Virus record (IMG/VR): IMGVR_UViG_3300011982_000003
Span: 1-7,001 of that record
Strand: one strand, 5' to 3'
DNA length: 7,001 nucleotides
Origin: a virus
Shown: one piece after another, positions 1 to 7,001 of the stretch
Numbering within the stretch: the first letter of the stretch is position 1
Layout: every line of letters starts with the position of its first letter
Program-made: the position numbers and the translations under genes
The notes under the pieces: generated by a model
Database searches by the model: none
Seen by the model: the letters and a program-made list of their open reading frames with translations, nothing else
What the model was told of the DNA's origin: nothing

Positions 1-77
1 GTTCGGAGACGCACATTTATTCCCAGCCTGCTGGAATGTTGTTGCCCGTTTTCCAGATGTTTTTGAACCCTAATGAC
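1..77. repeat. Terminal redundancy: 1..77 is identical to 6925..7001, so the window is a circular genome of 6,924 nt written with a 77-nt overlap
   Basis: Both ends match exactly when read directly (gttcggagacgcacatttattcccagcctgctggaatgttgttgcccgttttccagatgtttttgaaccctaatgac). The VP1 reading frame continues through the junction without a break. Confidence 0.9.
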
Positions 78-2102
78 CATGTATCAGTCGATACAAGTTC
101 AATTGTTCAGGCGCAAACACTTCAAGGTCGCCCGTTCTTAGGAATGAAACAGAATTTTGCGTTCTATTTTGTTCCTGCTCGTTTGATGTGTAGCTACTCG
201 AAAGCTTTCTTTAGCGGTGTAAATCCGAAAAATACGGTTACGAGTGCAAAGCTTGTTGCAGACAACCCTGCGGGTTCTGTTTTGAAAGTTCCTACCTTTA
301 AGCCTTATCAGGTGTTTGTCCGTTTTGCCGGCATTCCTGATGAAACTTCACAATTGCTTGACGTGAAGTGGATTGAGTCTAAGTTCGGTGGTTCTGCTGT
401 TAAAGACCCTCTTGCTCCTGGTAAGAATGAAGGCTTTTCAAGTGGTGGTTATTTTGGCAATCGTCGTGCTAAGTCTTCCGGTGTTGATGAGTTTACGGAG
501 GAAGAAGCAAAAGAAGCAGCTGCAAAGCCAAACCCTGTATTTAATGTTCCTGGAGATGCGTTTTTCAAGAAACCTTACGGTGATATTCTGGCGCAAAACA
601 GTAATATCGTTGATGCACTCGGCTATGATATGTTGTCTTCTTATGTTCGTTTTTGTGACATGATGAAGTACGGTGCTATGCCTTACATCGGCGAAAGTGT
701 CAATATCAAGTCTGTAACGCCGGAATTGATGAAATACGAAGCTAATTTATATTATTGGCTTGCGTATCAGAAGATATATCAAGACCACTTCCTTGATAGT
801 AACTATGAGTTTGTCAATCCTCGTTCTTATAACGTAGATGATTTGTATGACCCGACTGATTCCTCTTTCAAGTTCGATTTTGCGAGTACGAAAGAGGCTT
901 TGGACCGTGCTGTAGACATCTTTTCACCTCGTTATATCAAGTACGAGAAAGATTTGTTGTCTAACATTCACCCGTCACCGCTGTTCCTCGATGATGTTTC
1001 ATCTACGATTAAGACTTTTGTAGGTTCCGCCCCCGTTACGGGTGGCTCCTTAGATGGTCGCGGAAAAGCTTTTAACCCTTACAAAAATTCCGATACGCTT
1101 GTGTCGACGATTTGGAACGGTTCTGCGCAGTCGGAAACGATTATGTCAGCTGCTCAATTGCGCAACTTGATGGCCCTTGACAAGATGGCTCAGATTTCAA
1201 GTCGTGCACCTAAGACGTACAAAGGACAGATGTTGGCACATTACGGTGTGAATGTATCTGATGACCTAATGGAAAGTTTCTATCTCGGTGGTTTCCAAAA
1301 GGCGTTGGAAGTTTCTCCGGTTATTGCCACGTCAGATGGTAAATCGGATGATGGGTCTACCAATTTTGGACAGCAAGGAAGTTATATTGACTCTGCGCAG
1401 AGTGGACATATCAATTTCGATGCTCGTGAACATGGTGTCCTGATGTGTCTTTCTTGGTTCTCTCCCTCTTCTTTGTATGATGCTGACGGTATCGACGCTT
1501 TCAATACGAAGATGTTCCGCGAGGATTATTTTGTCCCCGAAGTCGAGGACCTTGGTATGCAGCCTATCGAGTATGCCCGTTTGTTGCCTCCTTGGATAAA
1601 GTTCGGTGCATATCGTCTGCCGGACATGACCGGATTGTCTGCAGAGTATTTGGCTACGCATAAGAAAGAGGTAGAAGATGCGTATAATGCTACGTATAAG
1701 CGTGCTTCGCTTCGTGCTCGTGGTCGCACCTTAGGTGGTGAAAGTAATGCTATCGATGTGTCAAGAGTGTATGGCTGGCAGCCTCGGTATCACGAGTTCA
1801 AAGCCGGTGCGGATTATATCCACGGAGAATTCAAGACAGGCCGCTCTATGCAGGTTCTTACTGTTCATCGTCCTACGGTGTTTAATAAGGAATTAGGCTT
1901 GAATGTTCGAAGTTCGTTTGCGTATGATAATACGTACCACGGTGTGCCTGCTTCGTTTTTGTATGTGGACCCTGCATGTACTAATGAAGTTGTGGAAGTC
2001 AATTATGACGGTACCGAGAAGACAGACCCGTTCCGCATCACTACGCACTTTGCAGTGAGTTATATTTCTGACATGTCCGTTTCCGGCATGCCTCGTGTTT
2101 AA
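1..2102 (+). CDS. Major capsid protein VP1 (F-like), 5'-partial in this linear window; the true start is at 6864
   Basis: A 688-aa ORF extended upstream through the junction. It is the largest ORF in a small circular genome that also encodes a rolling-circle Rep with a YVAKY motif, so the Microviridae capsid assignment is by context plus the conserved N-terminus. Its length matches the large VP1 of gut or Bacteroidota microviruses. Confidence 0.85.
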   Translation, partial: SETHIYSQPAGMLLPVFQMFLNPNDHVSVDTSSIVQAQTLQGRPFLGMKQNFAFYFVPARLMCSYSKAFFSGVNPKNTVTSAKLVADNPAGSVLKVPTFKPYQVFVRFAGIPDETSQLLDVKWIESKFGGSAVKDPLAPGKNEGFSSGGYFGNRRAKSSGVDEFTEEEAKEAAAKPNPVFNVPGDAFFKKPYGDILAQNSNIVDALGYDMLSSYVRFCDMMKYGAMPYIGESVNIKSVTPELMKYEANLYYWLAYQKIYQDHFLDSNYEFVNPRSYNVDDLYDPTDSSFKFDFASTKEALDRAVDIFSPRYIKYEKDLLSNIHPSPLFLDDVSSTIKTFVGSAPVTGGSLDGRGKAFNPYKNSDTLVSTIWNGSAQSETIMSAAQLRNLMALDKMAQISSRAPKTYKGQMLAHYGVNVSDDLMESFYLGGFQKALEVSPVIATSDGKSDDGSTNFGQQGSYIDSAQSGHINFDAREHGVLMCLSWFSPSSLYDADGIDAFNTKMFREDYFVPEVEDLGMQPIEYARLLPPWIKFGAYRLPDMTGLSAEYLATHKKEVEDAYNATYKRASLRARGRTLGGESNAIDVSRVYGWQPRYHEFKAGADYIHGEFKTGRSMQVLTVHRPTVFNKELGLNVRSSFAYDNTYHGVPASFLYVDPACTNEVVEVNYDGTEKTDPFRITTHFAVSYISDMSVSGMPRV

Positions 2103-2120
2103 CGTGTAAGATGTTTTATT

Positions 2121-2546
2121 ATGAAGAATTGTTATTTAAGACGCTGGCAGATTGAAAATGCTAATGCTTTTAGTCCTGCACAGGAGCAAGTTGTGACGGT
2201 AGACCAGGAGGCTACACAGTTGTTTGAAAAACTGAACCCCGTGTTGTCAAACGGTCATCGTGTGAATGTCATTACCCAGCTTGTTAACAAGAATGTGCCG
2301 CGTGAGGTTGCCGATGTTATTGCACAGTTGGTAGTTAATATACCGCACGATGACAAGAACAAGGGCTACACTGACGAGCAAATTAAGCAGATGATAGTGA
2401 GCCGTCATTATCAGAATGAAATTGAGCTTGAGGAAGTCCGTAAATCGCTTGATGCTGTGCTCGGAGATATGTTCCCAGATGAGCCTGCTTCGCAAGAGCC
2501 TGCTTTGCAGGAACCTACTCCACCGTCTGGCTCTAAACCCGAATAG
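2121..2546 (+). CDS. Hypothetical acidic 141-aa protein with a P/E/Q-rich C-terminus, possibly an internal scaffolding (VP3-like) protein
   Basis: Clean ORF on the same strand, tightly packed between the VP1 stop (2102) and the VP2 start (2549). The predicted protein is net acidic and largely helical, and is the size of gokushovirus VP3. No motif was recognised, so the functional call is only positional. Confidence 0.5.
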   Translation: MKNCYLRRWQIENANAFSPAQEQVVTVDQEATQLFEKLNPVLSNGHRVNVITQLVNKNVPREVADVIAQLVVNIPHDDKNKGYTDEQIKQMIVSRHYQNEIELEEVRKSLDAVLGDMFPDEPASQEPALQEPTPPSGSKPE

Positions 2547-2548
2547 TT

Positions 2549-3502
2549 ATGAATTATTTCAAGTTAGTAAGGGGAGAGCCTCTCTCCCCTACTTACGACA
2601 ATCGTAAGCAAATTGCGCCTTTACTTGCTGCTACTATACCTGCTGCCGTCTCGGCTGTCGGTTCTTTGGTCGGTAATTCAATGAATAATAAGGCTATACG
2701 TGAAAACAATCAGATGCAGCAGCGTCTTGTTGAAGAACAAAAAGCCTATAATGCACCGGACCAGCAAGTCGCTCGAATGCGTCAGGCAGGTTTGAACCCT
2801 TATATGATGCTTGGACAGCTTAATAGTGGTAATCAGGAAAGTGTTGCGACAACGACGCCGGAGAACAACGACACAGCCGTTAATGGTATTCTTAGTGCAG
2901 CTAATCAAGCCATTCAAGGCTTAGTAGGTCAGAGTCAAGTTCAGTTGAACAATGAGACAGCTAAGAAGACTGCGAGTGAAACCGCGCTTAATGAAATCGA
3001 TGCCCGAACGCGTGCAGCTGAAAATGATGCCCGGATTAATGCACTTGTAAAGCAGGGTAAGTTGACCGAAGAACAAGCCGAGGAAATTCGTCTAAAGAAC
3101 GACCTCACATTGTTGAATTGGGACGCTTTGTCGAAACAGTATAATATTCAAAATCAGAATGTACAAGCTGATACGAATTTGAAGACTGTAGAGAAGAATT
3201 CGAAAGATTTCCATCTACGGCAAGATAAGAAGTGGACAGATAAAGAACGTTATGCTGCTTTGCGTCTTCAAGGTACGCAATCTTTGTTGAATAATAAGCA
3301 ATCAAATGTGTTGAAACATGACGGAAATACTGCTTATTGGCGCTCTTTGGATAGTCACGTTTCCTATTTGGAGAATCAGCGCTTACATCGGTATAATCGT
3401 CAGTATTATCGTTCACCGATTAGTGACCGGAATTGGTCGCGTGTTCCTTTTGTTTCCGGTGCTGGAAGTAGTACGGGAGCTTTATTGAAACTTATCAAAT
3501 AA
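2549..3502 (+). CDS. Minor capsid / DNA pilot protein (VP2, H-like)
   Basis: 317 aa. An N-terminal hydrophobic stretch (IAPLLAATIPAAVSAVGSLVGNSM) is followed by a long Q/N/E/A-rich region predicted helical or coiled-coil. The MRQAGLNPYMMLG motif resembles the conserved AGLNP segment of microvirus VP2 proteins. The start is 2 nt after the preceding stop. Confidence 0.7.
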   Translation: MNYFKLVRGEPLSPTYDNRKQIAPLLAATIPAAVSAVGSLVGNSMNNKAIRENNQMQQRLVEEQKAYNAPDQQVARMRQAGLNPYMMLGQLNSGNQESVATTTPENNDTAVNGILSAANQAIQGLVGQSQVQLNNETAKKTASETALNEIDARTRAAENDARINALVKQGKLTEEQAEEIRLKNDLTLLNWDALSKQYNIQNQNVQADTNLKTVEKNSKDFHLRQDKKWTDKERYAALRLQGTQSLLNNKQSNVLKHDGNTAYWRSLDSHVSYLENQRLHRYNRQYYRSPISDRNWSRVPFVSGAGSSTGALLKLIK

Positions 3503-3548
3503 TTATTTATTTGGTTATGTGTAATATTAATTTTTAATTTACGTTATT

Positions 3549-3635
3549 ATGAAAAAAGAGAATGTTTGGAAGCTTGTGTTACAGATTGCTGTTTCGGCGA
3601 TTACTGCACTTGCAACCGCTTTAGGTGTTAATTAA
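3549..3635 (+). CDS. Small predicted single-transmembrane peptide, 28 aa (MKKENVWKLVLQIAVSAITALATALGVN)
   Basis: Hand-translated ORF, below the ORF-track size cutoff. It has an N-terminal KK then a 20-residue hydrophobic helix. It is on the coding strand in a region otherwise without ORFs, immediately upstream of a second similar peptide and a terminator-like hairpin. Confidence 0.4.
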   Translation: MKKENVWKLVLQIAVSAITALATALGVN

Positions 3636-3645
3636 TTTATTTGTT

Positions 3646-3762
3646 ATGTCGTATAAGAAAATATTTTTTACGATAGCAATTGTTTTTATGTTTATTTATC
3701 TGCCGGTTATCCTTGTTGGATTGATTTTTCTAATTGGTGATTGGTTAGGTATTAAAATTTAA
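3646..3762 (+). CDS. Small predicted single-transmembrane peptide, 38 aa (MSYKKIFFTIAIVFMFIYLPVILVGLIFLIGDWLGIKI), candidate holin-like or single-gene-lysis-like membrane protein
   Basis: Hand-translated ORF starting 10 nt after the previous peptide stop. It has an N-terminal basic KK, about 25 contiguous hydrophobic residues and a short polar C-terminus. A hairpin plus T-tract follows 13 nt after its stop. Confidence 0.4.
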   Translation: MSYKKIFFTIAIVFMFIYLPVILVGLIFLIGDWLGIKI

Positions 3763-3774
3763 TCTCTCTTAAAT

Positions 3775-3808
3775 GAGCGTGGCTTCGGTCACGCTTATTA
3801 TTTGCTGT
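3775..3808 (+). terminator. Rho-independent terminator-like hairpin (GAGCGTGGC-TTCG-GTCACGCTT, about 9 bp stem, TTCG tetraloop) followed by the T-rich ATTATTTGCTGTT
   Basis: Seen directly: positions 3776..3783 pair with 3788..3795, with one G-U and otherwise Watson-Crick pairs, then a T-rich run. It lies just downstream of the two small peptide ORFs. Confidence 0.45.
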
Positions 3809-4076
3809 TCGTTAGGTGAGCGTGAGCGAACATAGAATATGTTTTTTACCTTTACAGCTTGGGCCCTTGTGGCCGAACTGCGCCTAACGCTTTTTATTTG
3901 TTTTGTGTCGTTAGACAAACGCAGTACGGCGCAGCCGCCTCCTAAAGACTTTAAAAACTCTATTAATTTTGCACATCAACATTTTATCCGTATCTGTATG
4001 CGCGTGCGCGTCTCGTGCGCGCGTATGCTATACGTAGTTTGATGTGCTTAATTTGTTGTGATTAATTTGTTCCTGT

Positions 4077-4093
4077 CGGGCACGTAGTGCCCG
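4077..4093. other. Perfect GC-rich hairpin CGGGCAC-GTA-GTGCCCG (7 bp stem, 3-nt loop) in AT-rich non-coding DNA
   Basis: Exact inverted repeat read directly. There is no following T-run, so it is not a classical terminator. It is a candidate ssDNA structural signal such as a complementary-strand origin or packaging site. Confidence 0.5.
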
Positions 4094-4112
4094 CAAAACA
4101 TTTGGTAGGGGT

Positions 4113-4134
4113 TCGGGGGCTGCCAGGCCCCCGA
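4113..4134. other. Perfect GC-rich hairpin TCGGGGGC-TGCCAG-GCCCCCGA (8 bp stem, 6-nt loop)
   Basis: Exact inverted repeat read directly, 20 nt downstream of the first hairpin. It is flanked by G-runs (GGTAGGGG) upstream and the AT-rich CTATAAAAG downstream. Confidence 0.5.
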
Positions 4135-4415
4135 CTATAAAAGTTGTTGTATATAGTTTATATTATTGATATTCAGTTACTTATAATTGTTTATTTCTAT
4201 GCGTCGATAGACGGAACGTCGTTTGTATCGCTGCATATCTCTATTATTTTGTTATTATCAGTTTCCACGTCAGTGGCGCACGGCTCCCGTCCTGCGTACT
4301 CTACTCTCGACATATATAATAAAACTGACAGCTATCCAAGCACTATAAAACGCTTTAATTATTAATATTCCTTAAAAAAAAACGTTTATCATACTGCAGA
4401 TTATATTTTTCTGTG

Positions 4416-4423
4416 TATATTTG
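4416..4423 (+). promoter_or_regulatory. TATATTTG, a match to the Bacteroidota sigma-A -7 element TAnnTTTG, 31 nt upstream of the peptidase start codon
   Basis: The motif is seen directly. An upstream -33 TTTG element at canonical spacing is not clear, only a T-rich ATTTTTCTG. Assigning it as a promoter is inference from the established Bacteroides promoter consensus. Confidence 0.3.
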
Positions 4424-4453
4424 CGAATGTAAATACTAATTAACTAAAAAGTT

Positions 4454-4891
4454 ATGATGCTTGAAGATTGTAAATTGTCCCGCCATTTCACATTGTTTGA
4501 GATGTGCAATGTAAAAAAGTACGGTCGTTTTAATGAGCCTAACGCGAACGAGATTGCTAACTTAAAACAGTTGTGTTCGTTTCTCGAAATGCTTCGTGAC
4601 CGATTAGGCGGTTTATCTATAATTGTCAATTCTGGTTATCGTTCTAAGAACATTAATTTGCATGTAGGTGGTGTTCCCACCTCTGACCATGTAAAAGGTC
4701 TTGCTGCAGATATTCGCGTGATTGGTTATACCCCTATCAGGCTCGCAAAGTTTATTCGTAGCAATGATTTTCTTAACGGTTTTGTAGGTCAAGTAATCAT
4801 TTACCCTACGTTCTTGCATGTGTCGATAAATCGTTTCAAGCATAAGTCACAGTATCTAATAAAAAAAGGTAGTCGTTATGTCCCGTATTAA
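4454..4891 (+). CDS. Zinc metallopeptidase of the LAS / peptidase M15 (M15_3-like) family, a putative peptidoglycan D,D- or L-Ala-D-Glu peptidase (endolysin-like or entry cell-wall hydrolase)
   Basis: 145 aa. SGYRSKNINLHVGG is followed by SDHVKGLAADI, which matches the SxHxxGxAxD zinc-binding signature of VanY / M15 / hedgehog-fold peptidases. A downstream His in FLHVSIN serves as the third ligand. The first ATG is used (MML...), and there is no N-terminal signal peptide or TM segment. Confidence 0.75.
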   Translation: MMLEDCKLSRHFTLFEMCNVKKYGRFNEPNANEIANLKQLCSFLEMLRDRLGGLSIIVNSGYRSKNINLHVGGVPTSDHVKGLAADIRVIGYTPIRLAKFIRSNDFLNGFVGQVIIYPTFLHVSINRFKHKSQYLIKKGSRYVPY

Positions 4892-5063
4892 GTTGCAATA
4901 TCCTATAATTGAGCAATGCGAATTATCGATATACTTTGAGAGACGTATATCAAAGCATGGTGATAAGGATATCATTTTGTGGCGTGTTGAGCAATCAGAT
5001 GGTACATATCACTGTTTTTCAAGTTTTGATGCTGTAATCGATTTTGTAAAGTTGAATTTCTGA
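4878..5063 (+). CDS. Hypothetical 61-aa protein
   Basis: ORF overlapping the peptidase 3' end by 14 nt. Its stop overlaps the rep start in a TGATG arrangement, suggesting translational coupling. No motif was recognised. It is near charge-neutral, so it is not an obvious J/VP8-type basic DNA-binding protein. Confidence 0.45.
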   Translation: MSRIKLQYPIIEQCELSIYFERRISKHGDKDIILWRVEQSDGTYHCFSSFDAVIDFVKLNF

Positions 5064-6841
5064 TGCACCCTTTAGTTAGTCTCGTCAAAGAGAAAGAAGT
5101 GTTGTTACCTTGTGAACACCCGGTGTTGACAGAAAATAACGGTCGTGTTTATGCCCATGCCTGCGGTAAGTGTCGCATGTGTATGGAAAAGAAAGCACAG
5201 ATTTGGCGTATTAGATTAAAACAAGAGTGTGAAGATAACCGTTTTTGTATATTTTTTACCCTTACTTATGATAATATAAATGTTCCCTTTTTTCAACCTG
5301 CTAAAGACGCTGCTTGCTATGTACTCGATGGTGCGCAAGGATATCAGTTTAAAGGAGATGATTTCGTTTCTTATTCAAAAAGATTGTCCGTTCCTTATAA
5401 GGATTGTGGCGATGTGCTACCTATTGTTACCAATTTTGATGTTTGTAACTCTTTTGCTGTTGTTTCACGTACAGATGTTCAAAAGTTTTTGAAACGCTTC
5501 CGGTGGCATTTGCAACACCTTTTGACTAAACATTACAAGTTGAAATTTTATGACCAAATTTTCCATTGGACGCGACAGTTAGGTTATGATGGAACTGTAA
5601 AGTTTGAGGATTGGTTGTCTGATTTAGATGATGATACCTATACGATATATAATGAAGTTTATCAATATTATAAAAATAAATATGAAAAAGAAAAAGAACA
5701 AGCAAAGCAAGTCACGCGTTACTTCATTTGTAGCGAGTACACTCCGAGCACTTTCCGACCCCACTATCATGGTCTCTTTTGGTTTGAGAATGAAAAGGCG
5801 TACCAATTCGCCTTTAGGTGTATACGTAAGGCTTGGACGTTGTGCCATCAAAGGAATATCGACGTCCAATCTGTCACCGGCAACGCTTACGCCTATGTTG
5901 CGAAATATGTTACTGGCAATCTTAATTTGCCAAAGGTTCTACAAGCTAAATCTACCCGCACGTTCTGTCTGGCTTCTAAAGGTCCAGCTGTCGGGTATAA
6001 GTCGTTTAGTTCAGAAAGAGTATGCGAAATGTACAACCAACGAAATATATTCAGAAGTATTGACACAGTCACAAAGCAAGGAAAACAAGTTAATGTTTAC
6101 GTTGTTCCCCCGAGTGTTGTATCTCGATATTTCCCAAAGTGTTATCAGTATAGCCAGATATCTGATACACATAAATTTCGTGTATATACGCGATTTATCA
6201 AAATACAAAGATATGGTGACGTCGAAAAAATAGATATTCCTGCTTCTCTCGCGTGTTTACAATGGTATAAAGAGAATACGCATTTATATCCTCGGAGAAC
6301 TGTTGATGAATTAGGTGATAGTATGAACGCTGAGACTCCTTGGTTTCATTCTGCAGACATCAATGCCGCTCGTGCATGTTTAAGATGGTGTGTTAAGTAT
6401 GATTGTCACCCAAACCATTATATTGCGATGTTGGATTGGTTTCATAACGAGTATGCACAATATAATTTGTATCAACAATATCGGTATATGGAGCGTTTAC
6501 AGCGTGTTGTGCGTTACCGTGCTGATGAATACTATTCAAAGGATATAGATATAAGGTTAGATGATGTCAAGATATGTATAGATTTTACGTTCTTGGCGTG
6601 TTTACCGTTCTATTTGAAAGATGCTATTGATAGGCCTGATTTGTGTGCTATTGCAGAGAGTTACGGCATACATATATCTAACTTCTATTATCAAGGTTTG
6701 TTGTCACGTGATAAGGTTAATAGATACTATGAATATAACCAGAAGCATTTTGCCGAGTATCGACAAAAAGTTTATGATAGGTTGATATTGGCCGATAAAA
6801 CTAAGAAAGCTAATTCCTCTGTTTTGGAAGAAGTATATTAA
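5063..6841 (+). CDS. Rolling-circle replication initiation protein (VP4 / phiX174 gene A-like)
   Basis: 592 aa with the three RCR motifs in order: motif I FFTLTYD (about 5253..5273), motif II HYHGLFW (HYH at 5762..5770), and motif III YAYVAKYVTGN with paired catalytic tyrosines YVAKY (5894..5908), as in the phiX174 A protein. The N-terminus carries a Cys/His cluster, C-x-H...H-x-C-x2-C-x2-C. Confidence 0.9.
   Translation: MHPLVSLVKEKEVLLPCEHPVLTENNGRVYAHACGKCRMCMEKKAQIWRIRLKQECEDNRFCIFFTLTYDNINVPFFQPAKDAACYVLDGAQGYQFKGDDFVSYSKRLSVPYKDCGDVLPIVTNFDVCNSFAVVSRTDVQKFLKRFRWHLQHLLTKHYKLKFYDQIFHWTRQLGYDGTVKFEDWLSDLDDDTYTIYNEVYQYYKNKYEKEKEQAKQVTRYFICSEYTPSTFRPHYHGLFWFENEKAYQFAFRCIRKAWTLCHQRNIDVQSVTGNAYAYVAKYVTGNLNLPKVLQAKSTRTFCLASKGPAVGYKSFSSERVCEMYNQRNIFRSIDTVTKQGKQVNVYVVPPSVVSRYFPKCYQYSQISDTHKFRVYTRFIKIQRYGDVEKIDIPASLACLQWYKENTHLYPRRTVDELGDSMNAETPWFHSADINAARACLRWCVKYDCHPNHYIAMLDWFHNEYAQYNLYQQYRYMERLQRVVRYRADEYYSKDIDIRLDDVKICIDFTFLACLPFYLKDAIDRPDLCAIAESYGIHISNFYYQGLLSRDKVNRYYEYNQKHFAEYRQKVYDRLILADKTKKANSSVLEEVY
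5628..6233 (+). CDS. Candidate overprinted ORF (201 codons) in the +1 frame inside rep, with a highly basic N-terminus (MKKKKNKQSKSR...). Speculative.
   Basis: It is open for 201 codons in an AT-rich genome where alternate frames normally close quickly. Microviruses are known to overprint genes inside gene A (phiX B, K, A*). There is no independent evidence, and the basic N-terminus partly comes from an A-rich tract. Confidence 0.15.
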   Translation: MMIPIRYIMKFINIIKINMKKKKNKQSKSRVTSFVASTLRALSDPTIMVSFGLRMKRRTNSPLGVYVRLGRCAIKGISTSNLSPATLTPMLRNMLLAILICQRFYKLNLPARSVWLLKVQLSGISRLVQKEYAKCTTNEIYSEVLTQSQSKENKLMFTLFPRVLYLDISQSVISIARYLIHINFVYIRDLSKYKDMVTSKK

Positions 6842-6863
6842 TGTTTAACTAAATTATTGTATT

Positions 6864-7001
6864 ATGTCTAAAGTTCCAAAAATTGACGTTTCCCCTGCGA
6901 AACGACCTCGGAATGGTTTTGACCGTTCGGAGACGCACATTTATTCCCAGCCTGCTGGAATGTTGTTGCCCGTTTTCCAGATGTTTTTGAACCCTAATGA
7001 C
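6864..7001 (+). CDS. Major capsid protein VP1 (F-like), N-terminal part. The gene wraps across the circular junction and continues at 1..2102, giving about 720 aa in total.
   Basis: ATG at 6864 is the first start after an in-frame TAA at 6846..6848. Translation gives MSKVPKIDVSPAKRPRNGFDRSETHIYSQPAGMLLPVFQ..., a typical microvirus VP1 N-terminus (K/R-rich, RNxFD motif). It is in frame with the ORF 36..2102 (position 36 equals 6960, and 6960-6864=96). Confidence 0.85.
   Translation, partial: MSKVPKIDVSPAKRPRNGFDRSETHIYSQPAGMLLPVFQMFLNPND

Follow-up and report, generated by a model that had tools for sequence, protein, structure and literature searches.

The DNA analysed here (the window, 7,001 nucleotides (nt) in full) comprises positions 1 to 7,001 of the IMG/VR virus record IMGVR_UViG_3300011982_000003, and our subject is the gap between two of its genes at 3763-4453, which, judged by its sequence, is a single non-coding control region built as a row of independent modules. 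The window holds a circular genome of 6924 nt, with bases 1-77 recurring at 6925-7001 (77-nt terminal redundancy), and is identical in sequence to L186, the ENA ERZ988427 contig k127_15679 from a human oral metagenome (SRR2037085). L numbers denote the related loci that were fetched (viral contigs, proviruses and host contigs). Every gene lies on the + strand, the packaged strand in Microviridae. Upstream of the gap, the list of open reading frames (ORFs) gave the capsid gene (6864..2102), a protein of 141 amino acids (aa) between capsid and pilot, the pilot protein (2549-3502) and two small membrane-type peptides (3549-3635 and 3646-3762). Downstream are a peptidase M15 (4454-4891, identified by a Pfam match), a 61-aa protein and Rep (5063-6841, 592 aa). 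The first small peptide (3549-3635) is a 28-aa hydrophobic peptide, MKKENVWKLVLQIAVSAITALATALGVN, which shows 77-86% nucleotide identity across the clade and is unannotated in GenBank OR148991; both small peptides may assist the M15 peptidase as lysis or holin-like proteins. The closest GenBank relatives are the saliva microviruses OR148991 and OR149003, which have a similar gene layout and a comparable gap. Other relatives were gathered using a DNA pattern, a Rep alignment searched against IMG/VR and a genome collection, exact-protein lookups and GenBank phages. The alignment was needed as query to retrieve Rep relatives, as a single Rep sequence gave none. These comparisons identify the window as a temperate microvirus of the Alpavirinae type, with oral bacteria close to Segatella (Prevotella) maculosa as its likely hosts.

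A preliminary description of the gap had reported that it contains no protein-like ORF, and we found only ORFs of 67, 73, 41 and 49 aa in 3763-4453; those of 67, 73 and 49 aa, the three that were tested, had no PHROG match. An independent assembly from another sample, L169 (ENA ERZ505025 NODE_4222), was 100% identical to the window over 3560-4460, as well as in the peptidase, which makes assembly indels or a frameshifted gene very unlikely. Upstream of 3545 the sequence of L169 is unlike that of the window, and its Rep has 586 aa versus 592 aa, suggesting that a recent recombination event shifted the whole control region between backbones. The gap had also been described as highly structured, and its whole-region z scores were indeed -5.5 for + strand single-stranded DNA (ssDNA), -6.1 for + strand RNA and -4.2 for - strand RNA. 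These values, like those of the other key segments, were calculated against dinucleotide shuffles (200 for 3961-4256), while mononucleotide shuffles were used for the genome scan and for a comparison of 25 genomes. The most structured part of the genome was 3901-4250 (z -4.9 to -5.4 in 150-nt windows; genome mean -0.77, sd 1.5). Segment 3961-4256 alone reached z -6.7 on the + strand and -5.3 on the - strand, with a modest difference in fold energy (-50.9 vs -45.6 kcal/mol). The thermodynamic signal of the gap thus arises almost wholly from a 281-nt block that is specific to this lineage. The individual hairpins listed earlier were also found on the + strand. CGGGCAC-GTA-GTGCCCG lies at 4078-4094, one base off the 4077-4093 first given, and TCGGGGGC-TGCCAG-GCCCCCGA lies at 4113-4134 as reported. 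The longer-range complements are present as well, namely CTGCGCC (3878-3884) with GGCGCAG (3928-3934), CCTAACG with CGTTAG, and TGTTCG (3806-3811) with CGAACA (3828-3833). On the other hand, the length of the region, which had been thought unusual, is normal for the Alpavirinae-type subfamily, in which relatives span 187-812 nt from the terminator to the conserved junction described next.

The sole part of the gap that is conserved across the subfamily is a three-way junction on the + strand at 4257-4332, hereafter element B, which is supported by covariation. Its closing helix P1 pairs CAGTTT (4259-4264) with AAACTG (4322-4327), P2 is a 4-bp hairpin (4265-4268 with 4273-4276), and P3 is a bulged helix (4277-4280 and 4282-4283 with 4291-4292 and 4293-4296) with the loop CTCCCGT in the window and CYCCGY in the consensus. 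A 25-nt unpaired strand (4297-4321) separates P3 from the 3' half of P1 and carries CTCG at 4306-4309, then an AT-rich run; GACAG occupies 4327-4331, with ACAG directly after P1. In 15 hand-aligned sequences, 93.6% of the positions assigned to helices were paired and 9 of the 16 pairs had changed on both sides. None of 500 shuffles reached the covariation score, and controls in which the alignment was slid gave 29-40% pairing. A covariance model built from these 15 sequences found full-length copies of element B in 41 of 100 loci, most of them Alpavirinae-like viral genomes, with several Bacteroidales proviruses besides; every copy was on the strand that encodes Rep. With all 41 sequences, pairing was 93.3% and 13 of the 16 pairs, four of them in P1, had changed on both sides; again, no shuffle out of 500 reached either the pair count or the covariation score (slid controls, 29-49%). 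Hence, relatives do share a conserved structure here, and the strong covariation that the preliminary description had proposed to look for is in element B, beyond the hairpins that it listed; its exact hairpins sit in a block confined to one lineage.

The covariance model matched 28 of the 49 nearest Rep-retrieved viral contigs, and at least one of the non-matching contigs, L079, is a truncated provirus. No match was obtained in the small 4-kb genomes. Element B was also found in 5 of 14 provirus loci from the genome collection (L154-L157 and L159, from Prevotella, Bacteroidaceae and Muribaculum), with L157 matching weakly (E 0.72), as well as in the lysogens L179-L181 and L190/L191. Every complete genome of the group has kept it, including those without the dif-like site described below, indicating that element B is not tied to integration. 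Near-invariant positions are the TC before P1, the P3 loop, the unpaired CTTG and the GACA after P1.

A dif-like site lies downstream of element B on the + strand (4384-4411), made of an 11-nt arm (GTTTATCATAC), a 6-nt spacer (TGCAGA) and a second 11-nt arm (TTATATTTTTC), and this site is the phage attachment site (attP). The exact 61-aa protein of the window was found, by exact-protein lookup, to be encoded in long bacterial contigs (L179-L182 and L178), and in the complete lysogen contigs a related prophage sits between phoH and DUF4295-rpmG-rpmB. At attL (L179-L182, L178), host AATTTATCATAA is followed by TGCAGATTATATTTTTC; the phage side in L179 is 100% identical to window positions 4395-4475, into the peptidase gene, with one or a few mismatches in the remaining lysogens. 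At attR (L179-L181), phage ..CTTATCATAC and TGCAGA are followed by host TTATATTATT.., and the two junction sites of L179 are at 9503-9530 and 16237-16264. The empty site of Segatella maculosa GCA_000382385.1 (L183, about 2840-2870) reads AATTTATCATAA, TACGTA, TTATATTATCA, and the PhoH encoded beside attL is 98% identical to S. maculosa PhoH. The hybrid attL and attR, read from five or more independent assemblies (L178-L182), together with this empty site place the crossover inside the 28-bp dif-like site. What fits less well is the spacer, which is TACGTA in the reference empty site and TGCAGA at the lysogen junctions (TTCAGA in L182); this may reflect a strain difference in the spacer of the lysogenised hosts or conversion of the spacer on integration. 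Similar att repeats flank the proviruses L154, L155, L156 and L159, with element B 34-250 nt upstream of attR; the repeat of L154 reads ATTTATCATAA, TCGACA, TTATATTTTTA. In the window, 4384-4411 is the only good dif-like match, the runner-up having 3 mismatches and lying inside Rep, 1.3 kb away.

No integrase or recombinase was found in a scan that covered all proteins but the capsid and that compared the 141-aa, 61-aa and peptide ORFs with PHROGs only. Integration is therefore presumably performed by host XerC/D-type recombinases, as proposed for the integrase-less Alpavirinae proviruses, which were suggested to use dif-like sites (PMC3091885). The BMV1-7 proviruses described in that study share with the window a 28-bp site, a CATAA-N6-TTAT core, the lack of an integrase and imperfect direct repeats, and L156 is a BMV-type provirus in Prevotella multiformis DSM 16608. 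By all its sequence-level features, the site belongs to the known Alpavirinae dif-like att class, whose broader kin are the Xer-exploiting vibriophages VGJphi and CTXphi. Unlike with BMV, a free phage, several lysogens and an empty site are available here from one lineage, so that attP, attL, attR and attB could be read directly. The S. maculosa locus is phoH / DUF4295-rpmG-rpmB, and its identity with the chromosomal dif is only inferred (PMC3091885). Additional features were seen near the dif-like sites of relatives. L094 and L110 carry two dif-like sites downstream of element B in direct orientation, 121 and 35 nt apart, respectively, and in L159 a unit of ~62 nt is repeated three times in tandem from element B towards attR (15733-15980). 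Two tRNA genes in the host flank of L179 (2038-2111 and 2141-2214) are several kb from the prophage and unrelated to the integration site.

The gap opens with an intrinsic terminator on the + strand (3772-3799, terminator scan), an 8-12 bp hairpin that is capped by a C(UUCG)G loop and runs into the T-rich tail ATTTGCTGTT. This GC-rich hairpin and its T-run lie downstream of the last gene, and the terminator closes the single long operon. Across 10 relatives its loop is invariant and all 80 of 80 cells are paired (slid controls, 25-55%), with two pairs changed on both sides. It also has many G-U/U-G wobbles, which pair on the + strand alone, indicating that it acts in the + sense transcript. 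At the other end of the gap, 31 nt upstream of the peptidase M15 start codon (4454), the + strand sequence TATATTTG (4416-4423) fits TAnnTTTG, the Bacteroidetes -7 promoter consensus. The 7-kb window has 3 copies of TAnnTTTG on both strands versus 7.4 expected, and the only two on the + strand are both within the gap (3964-3971 and 4416-4423). In relatives, the spacing between the start of the dif-like site and the -7 box is fixed at 33-46 nt. From this motif, 4416-4423 is presumed to be the main promoter, from which a peptidase-Rep-capsid-pilot transcript would start; a point against it is that no -33 TTTG element was found about 19-21 nt upstream of the -7 box. In the lysogen L179 this -7 box remains intact on the attL side, adjoining attL (9580 onward). 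An AT-rich pattern initially taken as 'promoter' turned out to be the att site, and the IMG/VR search with it returned 66 mostly irrelevant contigs. The idea that the hairpins of the gap are terminators against read-through of the rpmB operon was rejected, because the hairpins are not accompanied by T-runs on the - strand and the rpmB operon is already closed by a terminator of the host.

Between the terminator and element B, comparison with relatives revealed a slot for structured cassettes. The window carries a type III cassette (3800-3957, + strand), which opens with the conserved box TTAGGTGAGC (3812-3821) within the TGTTCG/CGAACA hairpin (3806-3833), holds GGCC-N5-GGCC and CTGCGCC/GGCGCAG helices, and ends in CCTAAAGAC (3941-3949), a 3' motif common to all cassette types. 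This cassette is 83% identical to that of L005, and type III is also found in the proviruses L179-L181. At least four unrelated sequence types occupy the slot, the others being type I (L001, L002, L077, L078, L083, L084), type II (L009, L010/L012, L076, L081) and type IV (L007). Many cassettes begin with TTAGGTGAGC-N3-5-GCGAACA and nearly all end with CC(N)TAAAG(A/C)CYTAAAAC. Types I and II are structured and conserved in distant microviruses. The consensus fold of type I has 8 pairs with compensatory change and an invariant G-U in its closing helix (TAGGTG/CATACCTA). The 5' hairpin of type II (GGGGYATAGGGGGC..GCCCCCATAGCG) recurs in human, pig and rodent microviruses, and the type II cassette of L190/L191 has an expansion segment, with compensatory changes in a long-range helix. 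Cassettes move independently of the rest of the genome, since the window and L005 share type III while their Rep proteins are only 38% identical, and L009 has an L005-like backbone with a type II cassette. The slot is also prone to acquire genes. In L002 (3955-4239), L005 (~3880-4130), L007 and L076 (two), small extra ORFs are inserted downstream of the main terminator and upstream of the cassette, each bringing a TAnnTTTG promoter and a hairpin terminator of its own. Tandem partial duplications of ~110 nt inside the cassette, either real or an assembly artefact, were seen in L081 (type II) and L084 (type I).

We tentatively assign these hairpin cassettes a role as complementary-strand origins, a reading whose chances we put slightly below even. 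The preliminary description had suggested such an origin for the gap, and for 3800-4256 it is the best guess, given its position before the candidate Rep origin discussed below, its folding with a modest + strand preference and its exchangeable, module-like types. In 25 Alpavirinae genomes, the 160 nt upstream of element B were more structured than coding controls (median z -2.1 vs -0.33, p = 5e-6). Placed just upstream of the candidate Rep origin, the cassettes would be the last DNA to be displaced. In rolling-circle plasmids, single-strand origin (sso) elements sit upstream of the Rep origin, and plasmid pMV158 has two of them in tandem. Non-homologous origin types are known elsewhere, as with G4-type versus phiX-type origins and with ssoA, ssoT, ssoU and ssoW. 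The cassettes resemble the G4 oric, the phiX174 primosome assembly site, the M13 ori(-) and ssoA/ssoT/ssoU/ssoW in being intergenic and strongly folded in the packaged or displaced strand; they resemble sso in lying directly upstream of a candidate Rep origin and in the exchange of non-homologous types between related replicons. The likeness to sso or G4-type origins is one of position, structure and modularity only. Other observations weigh against this assignment or limit it. Type III shows no compensatory changes among the 4 available sequences, because these copies are too few and too alike. Segment 3800-3960 is thermodynamically ordinary (z -1.35). A sequence likeness to characterised sso, G4 oric or primosome assembly sites was not shown, no direct comparison having been made. 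The TAGCG(T/A) strings of type I and II cassettes recall CS-6 of ssoA, which we take to be a six-base coincidence only. We know of no complementary-strand origin characterised for Bacteroidales hosts.

The cassette of the window is followed by the 281-nt block (3970-4250, + strand) with four strong hairpins in its fold at 3965-4053, 4078-4094, 4113-4134 and 4199-4236, the first of which is long and imperfect, with a 15-bp GC core and three G-T wobbles. The two hairpins singled out in the preliminary description (4078-4094 and 4113-4134) thus lie within this block. A 12-nt direct repeat bounds it (CTCTATTAATTT at 3958-3969 and CTCTATTATTTT at 4239-4250, + strand; spacing 281 nt, 92% identity), reading CTCTATTA(A/T)TTT, and the TAnnTTTG motif TAATTTTG (3964-3971) is exactly at its 5' edge. 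No homolog of the block was found in the fetched relatives, GenBank phages, IMG/VR, JGI metagenome contigs or the plasmid collection, and an exact-protein lookup of the 38-aa peptide gave no match. The lack of a counterpart in relatives indicates that the block is a recent addition in this lineage. It also counts against including the block in the origin reading, because a segment absent from every relative cannot be essential to the family and its hairpins are left without comparative support. The block could then be a non-essential insertion, either a second foreign cassette stacked by recombination or a small mobile hairpin element, an explanation that we regard as unlikely, albeit as the strongest of the alternatives. 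Besides being missing from all relatives, it is flanked by the direct repeat, relatives have the uninterrupted junction ..TAAAGACCTAAAAC..TTTACTTTCAG, and the tandem duplications of L081 and L084 mean that the slot tolerates insertions. However, the block is 100% identical in two samples with unlike flanking backbones (the window and L169), and a z score of -6.7 is not expected of random filler. That no further copy was found in any collection searched argues against an active mobile element, and no terminal inverted repeats could be read from the sequence, for which reason its identification as a miniature inverted-repeat transposable element was rejected.

Element B is a candidate for the viral-strand origin, at which Rep would nick between G4309 and A4310, and the evidence leaves us evenly divided on this assignment. 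It is suggested by the universal retention of element B in the group, its occurrence on the viral strand only, its CTTG and AT-rich run, the Rep motifs and its linkage in mosaic genomes. Of the 41 copies, 40 have CTTG or CTCG in the unpaired strand, the window being one of the few with CTCG. L001, L007, L008, L076, L078 and L084 contain CTTGATA exactly, where the window has CTCGACA. The motif of L001, L007 and L008 is CCCCTTGATATATATAGTAAAACTGAC. In phiX174, the origin is annotated at 4306 and reads CCCCCAACTTG before the nick and ATATTAATAACACTATAGAC after it (..CCCCCAACTTG then ATATTAATAAC..), and the pC194/pUB110 origin reads ..CTTATCTTGATA, ending in CTTGATA (PMC5031790, PMC7072734). Both the phiX174 origin (30 bp in gene A, nicked between G4305 and A4306) and the pC194/pUB110 origin (..CTTATCTTG up to the nick, then ATA..) thus share with most copies of element B a viral-strand CTTG and an AT-rich run; a C-run precedes the motif in each, and L001, L007 and L008 read CTTGATAT exactly as phiX174. 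The cognate Rep also resembles those of these systems. The window Rep has the HUH motif PHYHG at residues 233-237 and YVAKYV at 278-283 (window 5894-5911), the latter matching phiX174 gpA 343-348 in every residue, even though hardly anything else of the two proteins can be aligned. Furthermore, the genomes are mosaic. Between the window and L005, the cassette is 83% identical and the attP-promoter-peptidase segment 89-91%, yet their element B sequences are unlike and their Rep proteins have 38% identity, and L005, L009 and L179 share the element B type and the Rep type, yet carry different cassettes. Hence, element B stays with the Rep/capsid backbone while its flanks are exchanged, which is expected if a phage protein reads it and is unnecessary for a site read by the host.

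Other observations count against a Rep origin in element B. The window itself has CTCG followed by ACA and not CTTG followed by ATA, and the base after the G varies across the family (A, T, C). Likeness to the phiX174 origin is short, at 16 of 24 positions in AT-rich sequence. The phiX174 origin lies within gene A and has no three-way junction, whereas element B is a covarying junction, which the pC194 origin also lacks, and is intergenic, outside the Rep gene, which departs from the Bullavirinae arrangement. Element B is not thermodynamically unusual either (4250-4340, z -1.25). Finally, its similarity tracks the capsid too, with a partial correlation of 0.07 with Rep given capsid and of 0.36 with capsid given Rep; with a value of 0.07, Rep-specific co-evolution is not demonstrated, and the mosaic argument alone survives. 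An in-gene phiX-like origin, TTTGATGTTTGTAAC (in Rep, ~5445), was considered and rejected, as its synonymous sites vary and L005, L112 and L118 lack it. A BLASTP pairing of the phiX origin region with residues 88-144 of the window Rep was likewise rejected, being not colinear with the catalytic motifs.

Element B could alternatively be the complementary-strand origin or another site for a host factor (primase, PriA-type protein or RNA polymerase entry), with the Rep origin elsewhere, for example in the gene as in phiX174, and the variable cassettes accessory or dispensable. A conserved, covarying fold is how a structure-recognised ssDNA priming site would look, and element B is found on the packaged strand only. 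Its conservation across genomes with Rep proteins that are 20-30% identical would be easily explained if a conserved host protein reads it, and the missing signal of Rep-specific co-evolution points the same way. Nevertheless, we judge this explanation rather improbable, as element B travels with the Rep/capsid backbone when both flanks are swapped, its near-invariant single-stranded CTTG is the nick motif of the phiX/pC194 Rep superfamily, to which the YVAKYV of Rep corresponds, and the one in-gene phiX-like candidate examined (~5445) varies freely and is missing from three relatives.

The preliminary description had also raised a structured non-coding RNA (ncRNA), and the region, wholly or in part, could be expressed as one, for instance from the TAATTTTG box (3964-3971) over the 281-nt block; it is also conceivable that the cassettes or element B function at the RNA level, possibly in the control of lysogeny. 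The + strand RNA has a lower z score than the - strand RNA (-6.1 vs -4.2), G-U wobbles occur in the long hairpin of the block and in the closing helix of type I, and GNRA-like loops cap P2 in many copies of element B, but G-T wobbles and GNRA/GNA loops are stable in ssDNA too. A TAnnTTTG at the 5' edge of the block stands out in a genome otherwise depleted of the motif, but the chance expectation of one copy in 281 nt is ~0.15, no T-run follows any hairpin of the block, and no conserved promoter precedes the cassettes or element B. No repressor gene was evident in the phage genome by ORF list, PHROG and domain scans, which would leave room for a regulatory RNA. However, the region always comes after the terminator and before the main promoter, and the ORFs inserted in relatives terminate before the cassette. 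A scan of the window with Rfam 15 gave only a chance match to mir-1277 (E = 8.2, 19.7 bits vs an 81-bit cut-off), and permissive E-values yielded nothing in the non-coding regions of 13 related loci. Expression as ncRNA thus survives as an alternative of low probability. No tRNA or transfer-messenger RNA was found in the window, and the CUGAUGAG string in L190/L191, considered as a hammerhead, was rejected as it had no Rfam match. As for the packaging signal that the preliminary description had also mentioned, there is no evidence for one.

The hairpins could also fold the packaged strand into a forked attP like that of CTX phage, making ssDNA the Xer substrate. Extra dif-like sites are present near one end of BMV4-6, for which Krupovic and Forterre drew the analogy with CTX (PMC3091885), and element B is usually close upstream of the dif-like site (34-90 nt, up to ~280 nt in five loci). 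Such a fold is very improbable, however, because the window has a single good dif-like site and lacks the inverted second site of CTXphi, the second sites of L094 and L110 are direct and not inverted, attL and attR are reciprocal direct repeats as expected from a duplex attP (VGJ type), and element B occurs in genomes without a dif-like site. A folded attP formed by the unpaired strand of element B and the XerD arm was rejected as well, the pairing being AT-rich and, by eye, unconserved in three relatives. Finally, the chance that the region is a decayed or frameshifted protein gene, an outcome that the preliminary description had kept in view, is close to nil: small extra ORFs do occur in the slot of L002, L005, L007 and L076, but they are differently placed and unrelated in sequence, the independent assembly L169 is identical, the 67-, 73- and 49-aa ORFs have no PHROG match, and the conserved parts are accounted for by RNA/DNA structure and the att site.

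Taken as a whole, the explanation of the control region that we slightly favour is as follows. Transcription would start at the -7 box (4416-4423), run round the circle and end at the terminator (3772-3799); a single promoter-to-terminator unit would leave 3800-4410 outside main transcription and free for DNA transactions. Folded in the packaged + strand, the cassettes (3800-3957, plus ~3970-4250) would be the place at which a host enzyme primes the conversion of incoming ssDNA to duplex, and they would be interchangeable modules like the sso of rolling-circle plasmids. In element B, the unpaired 3' strand would present CT(T/C)G and the AT-rich run to a phiX-type Rep with two tyrosines, and nicking between G4309 and A4310 would start and end rolling-circle synthesis. 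The double-stranded replicative form would then recombine at attP with the host dif-like site between phoH and DUF4295-rpmG-rpmB. The preliminary idea of a cis-acting region thus holds in that the gap is non-coding and made of such elements, although it had overlooked attP, the promoter and element B. A broader proposal, which we advance with less confidence than either of our two origin assignments, is that the replication signals of Alpavirinae may be arranged as in a rolling-circle plasmid and not as in phiX174, with an intergenic junction origin, stackable host-adapted cassettes upstream of it and an adjoining Xer attP.

The attP is of a known kind, whereas the conserved three-way junction with its CTTG and the cassette organisation would represent a new form of the known rolling-circle control regions. 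Neither Rfam nor the literature searched yielded a description of element B or the cassette system. The nearest are the conserved intergenic hairpins beside Rep in reekeekee- and roodoodooviruses, which have compensatory substitutions and were tentatively linked to negative-strand initiation (PMC9865509). Those viruses belong to other subfamilies, and their structures differ from element B in being simple hairpins with no att site and no CTTG described (PMC9865509).

Three states of one lineage (free phage, lysogen and empty site) fix attP to 28 bp and point to a Segatella maculosa-like bacterium as the likely host. To our knowledge, the origins, promoters and integration mechanics of Alpavirinae, a group that ranks among the most abundant of the ssDNA phages in the human mouth and gut, have never been mapped. 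Element B provides a concrete and testable candidate for the Rep nick site across Alpavirinae. If the plasmid-like arrangement proposed above is correct, the microviruses that dominate the human mouth and gut would have their origins assigned for the first time, and a covariance model for annotating them would be at hand. After integration, the cassettes and element B would then lie at the right end of the prophage, and the main promoter and genes at its left end. With the covariance model and the att pattern, thousands of metagenomic microvirus genomes might be annotated and temperate phages told apart from lytic ones, and the design of minimal replicons or of integration vectors for Bacteroidales might profit too. 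As priming needs host enzymes, the exchange of cassettes bears on host range as well as on recombination among microviruses.

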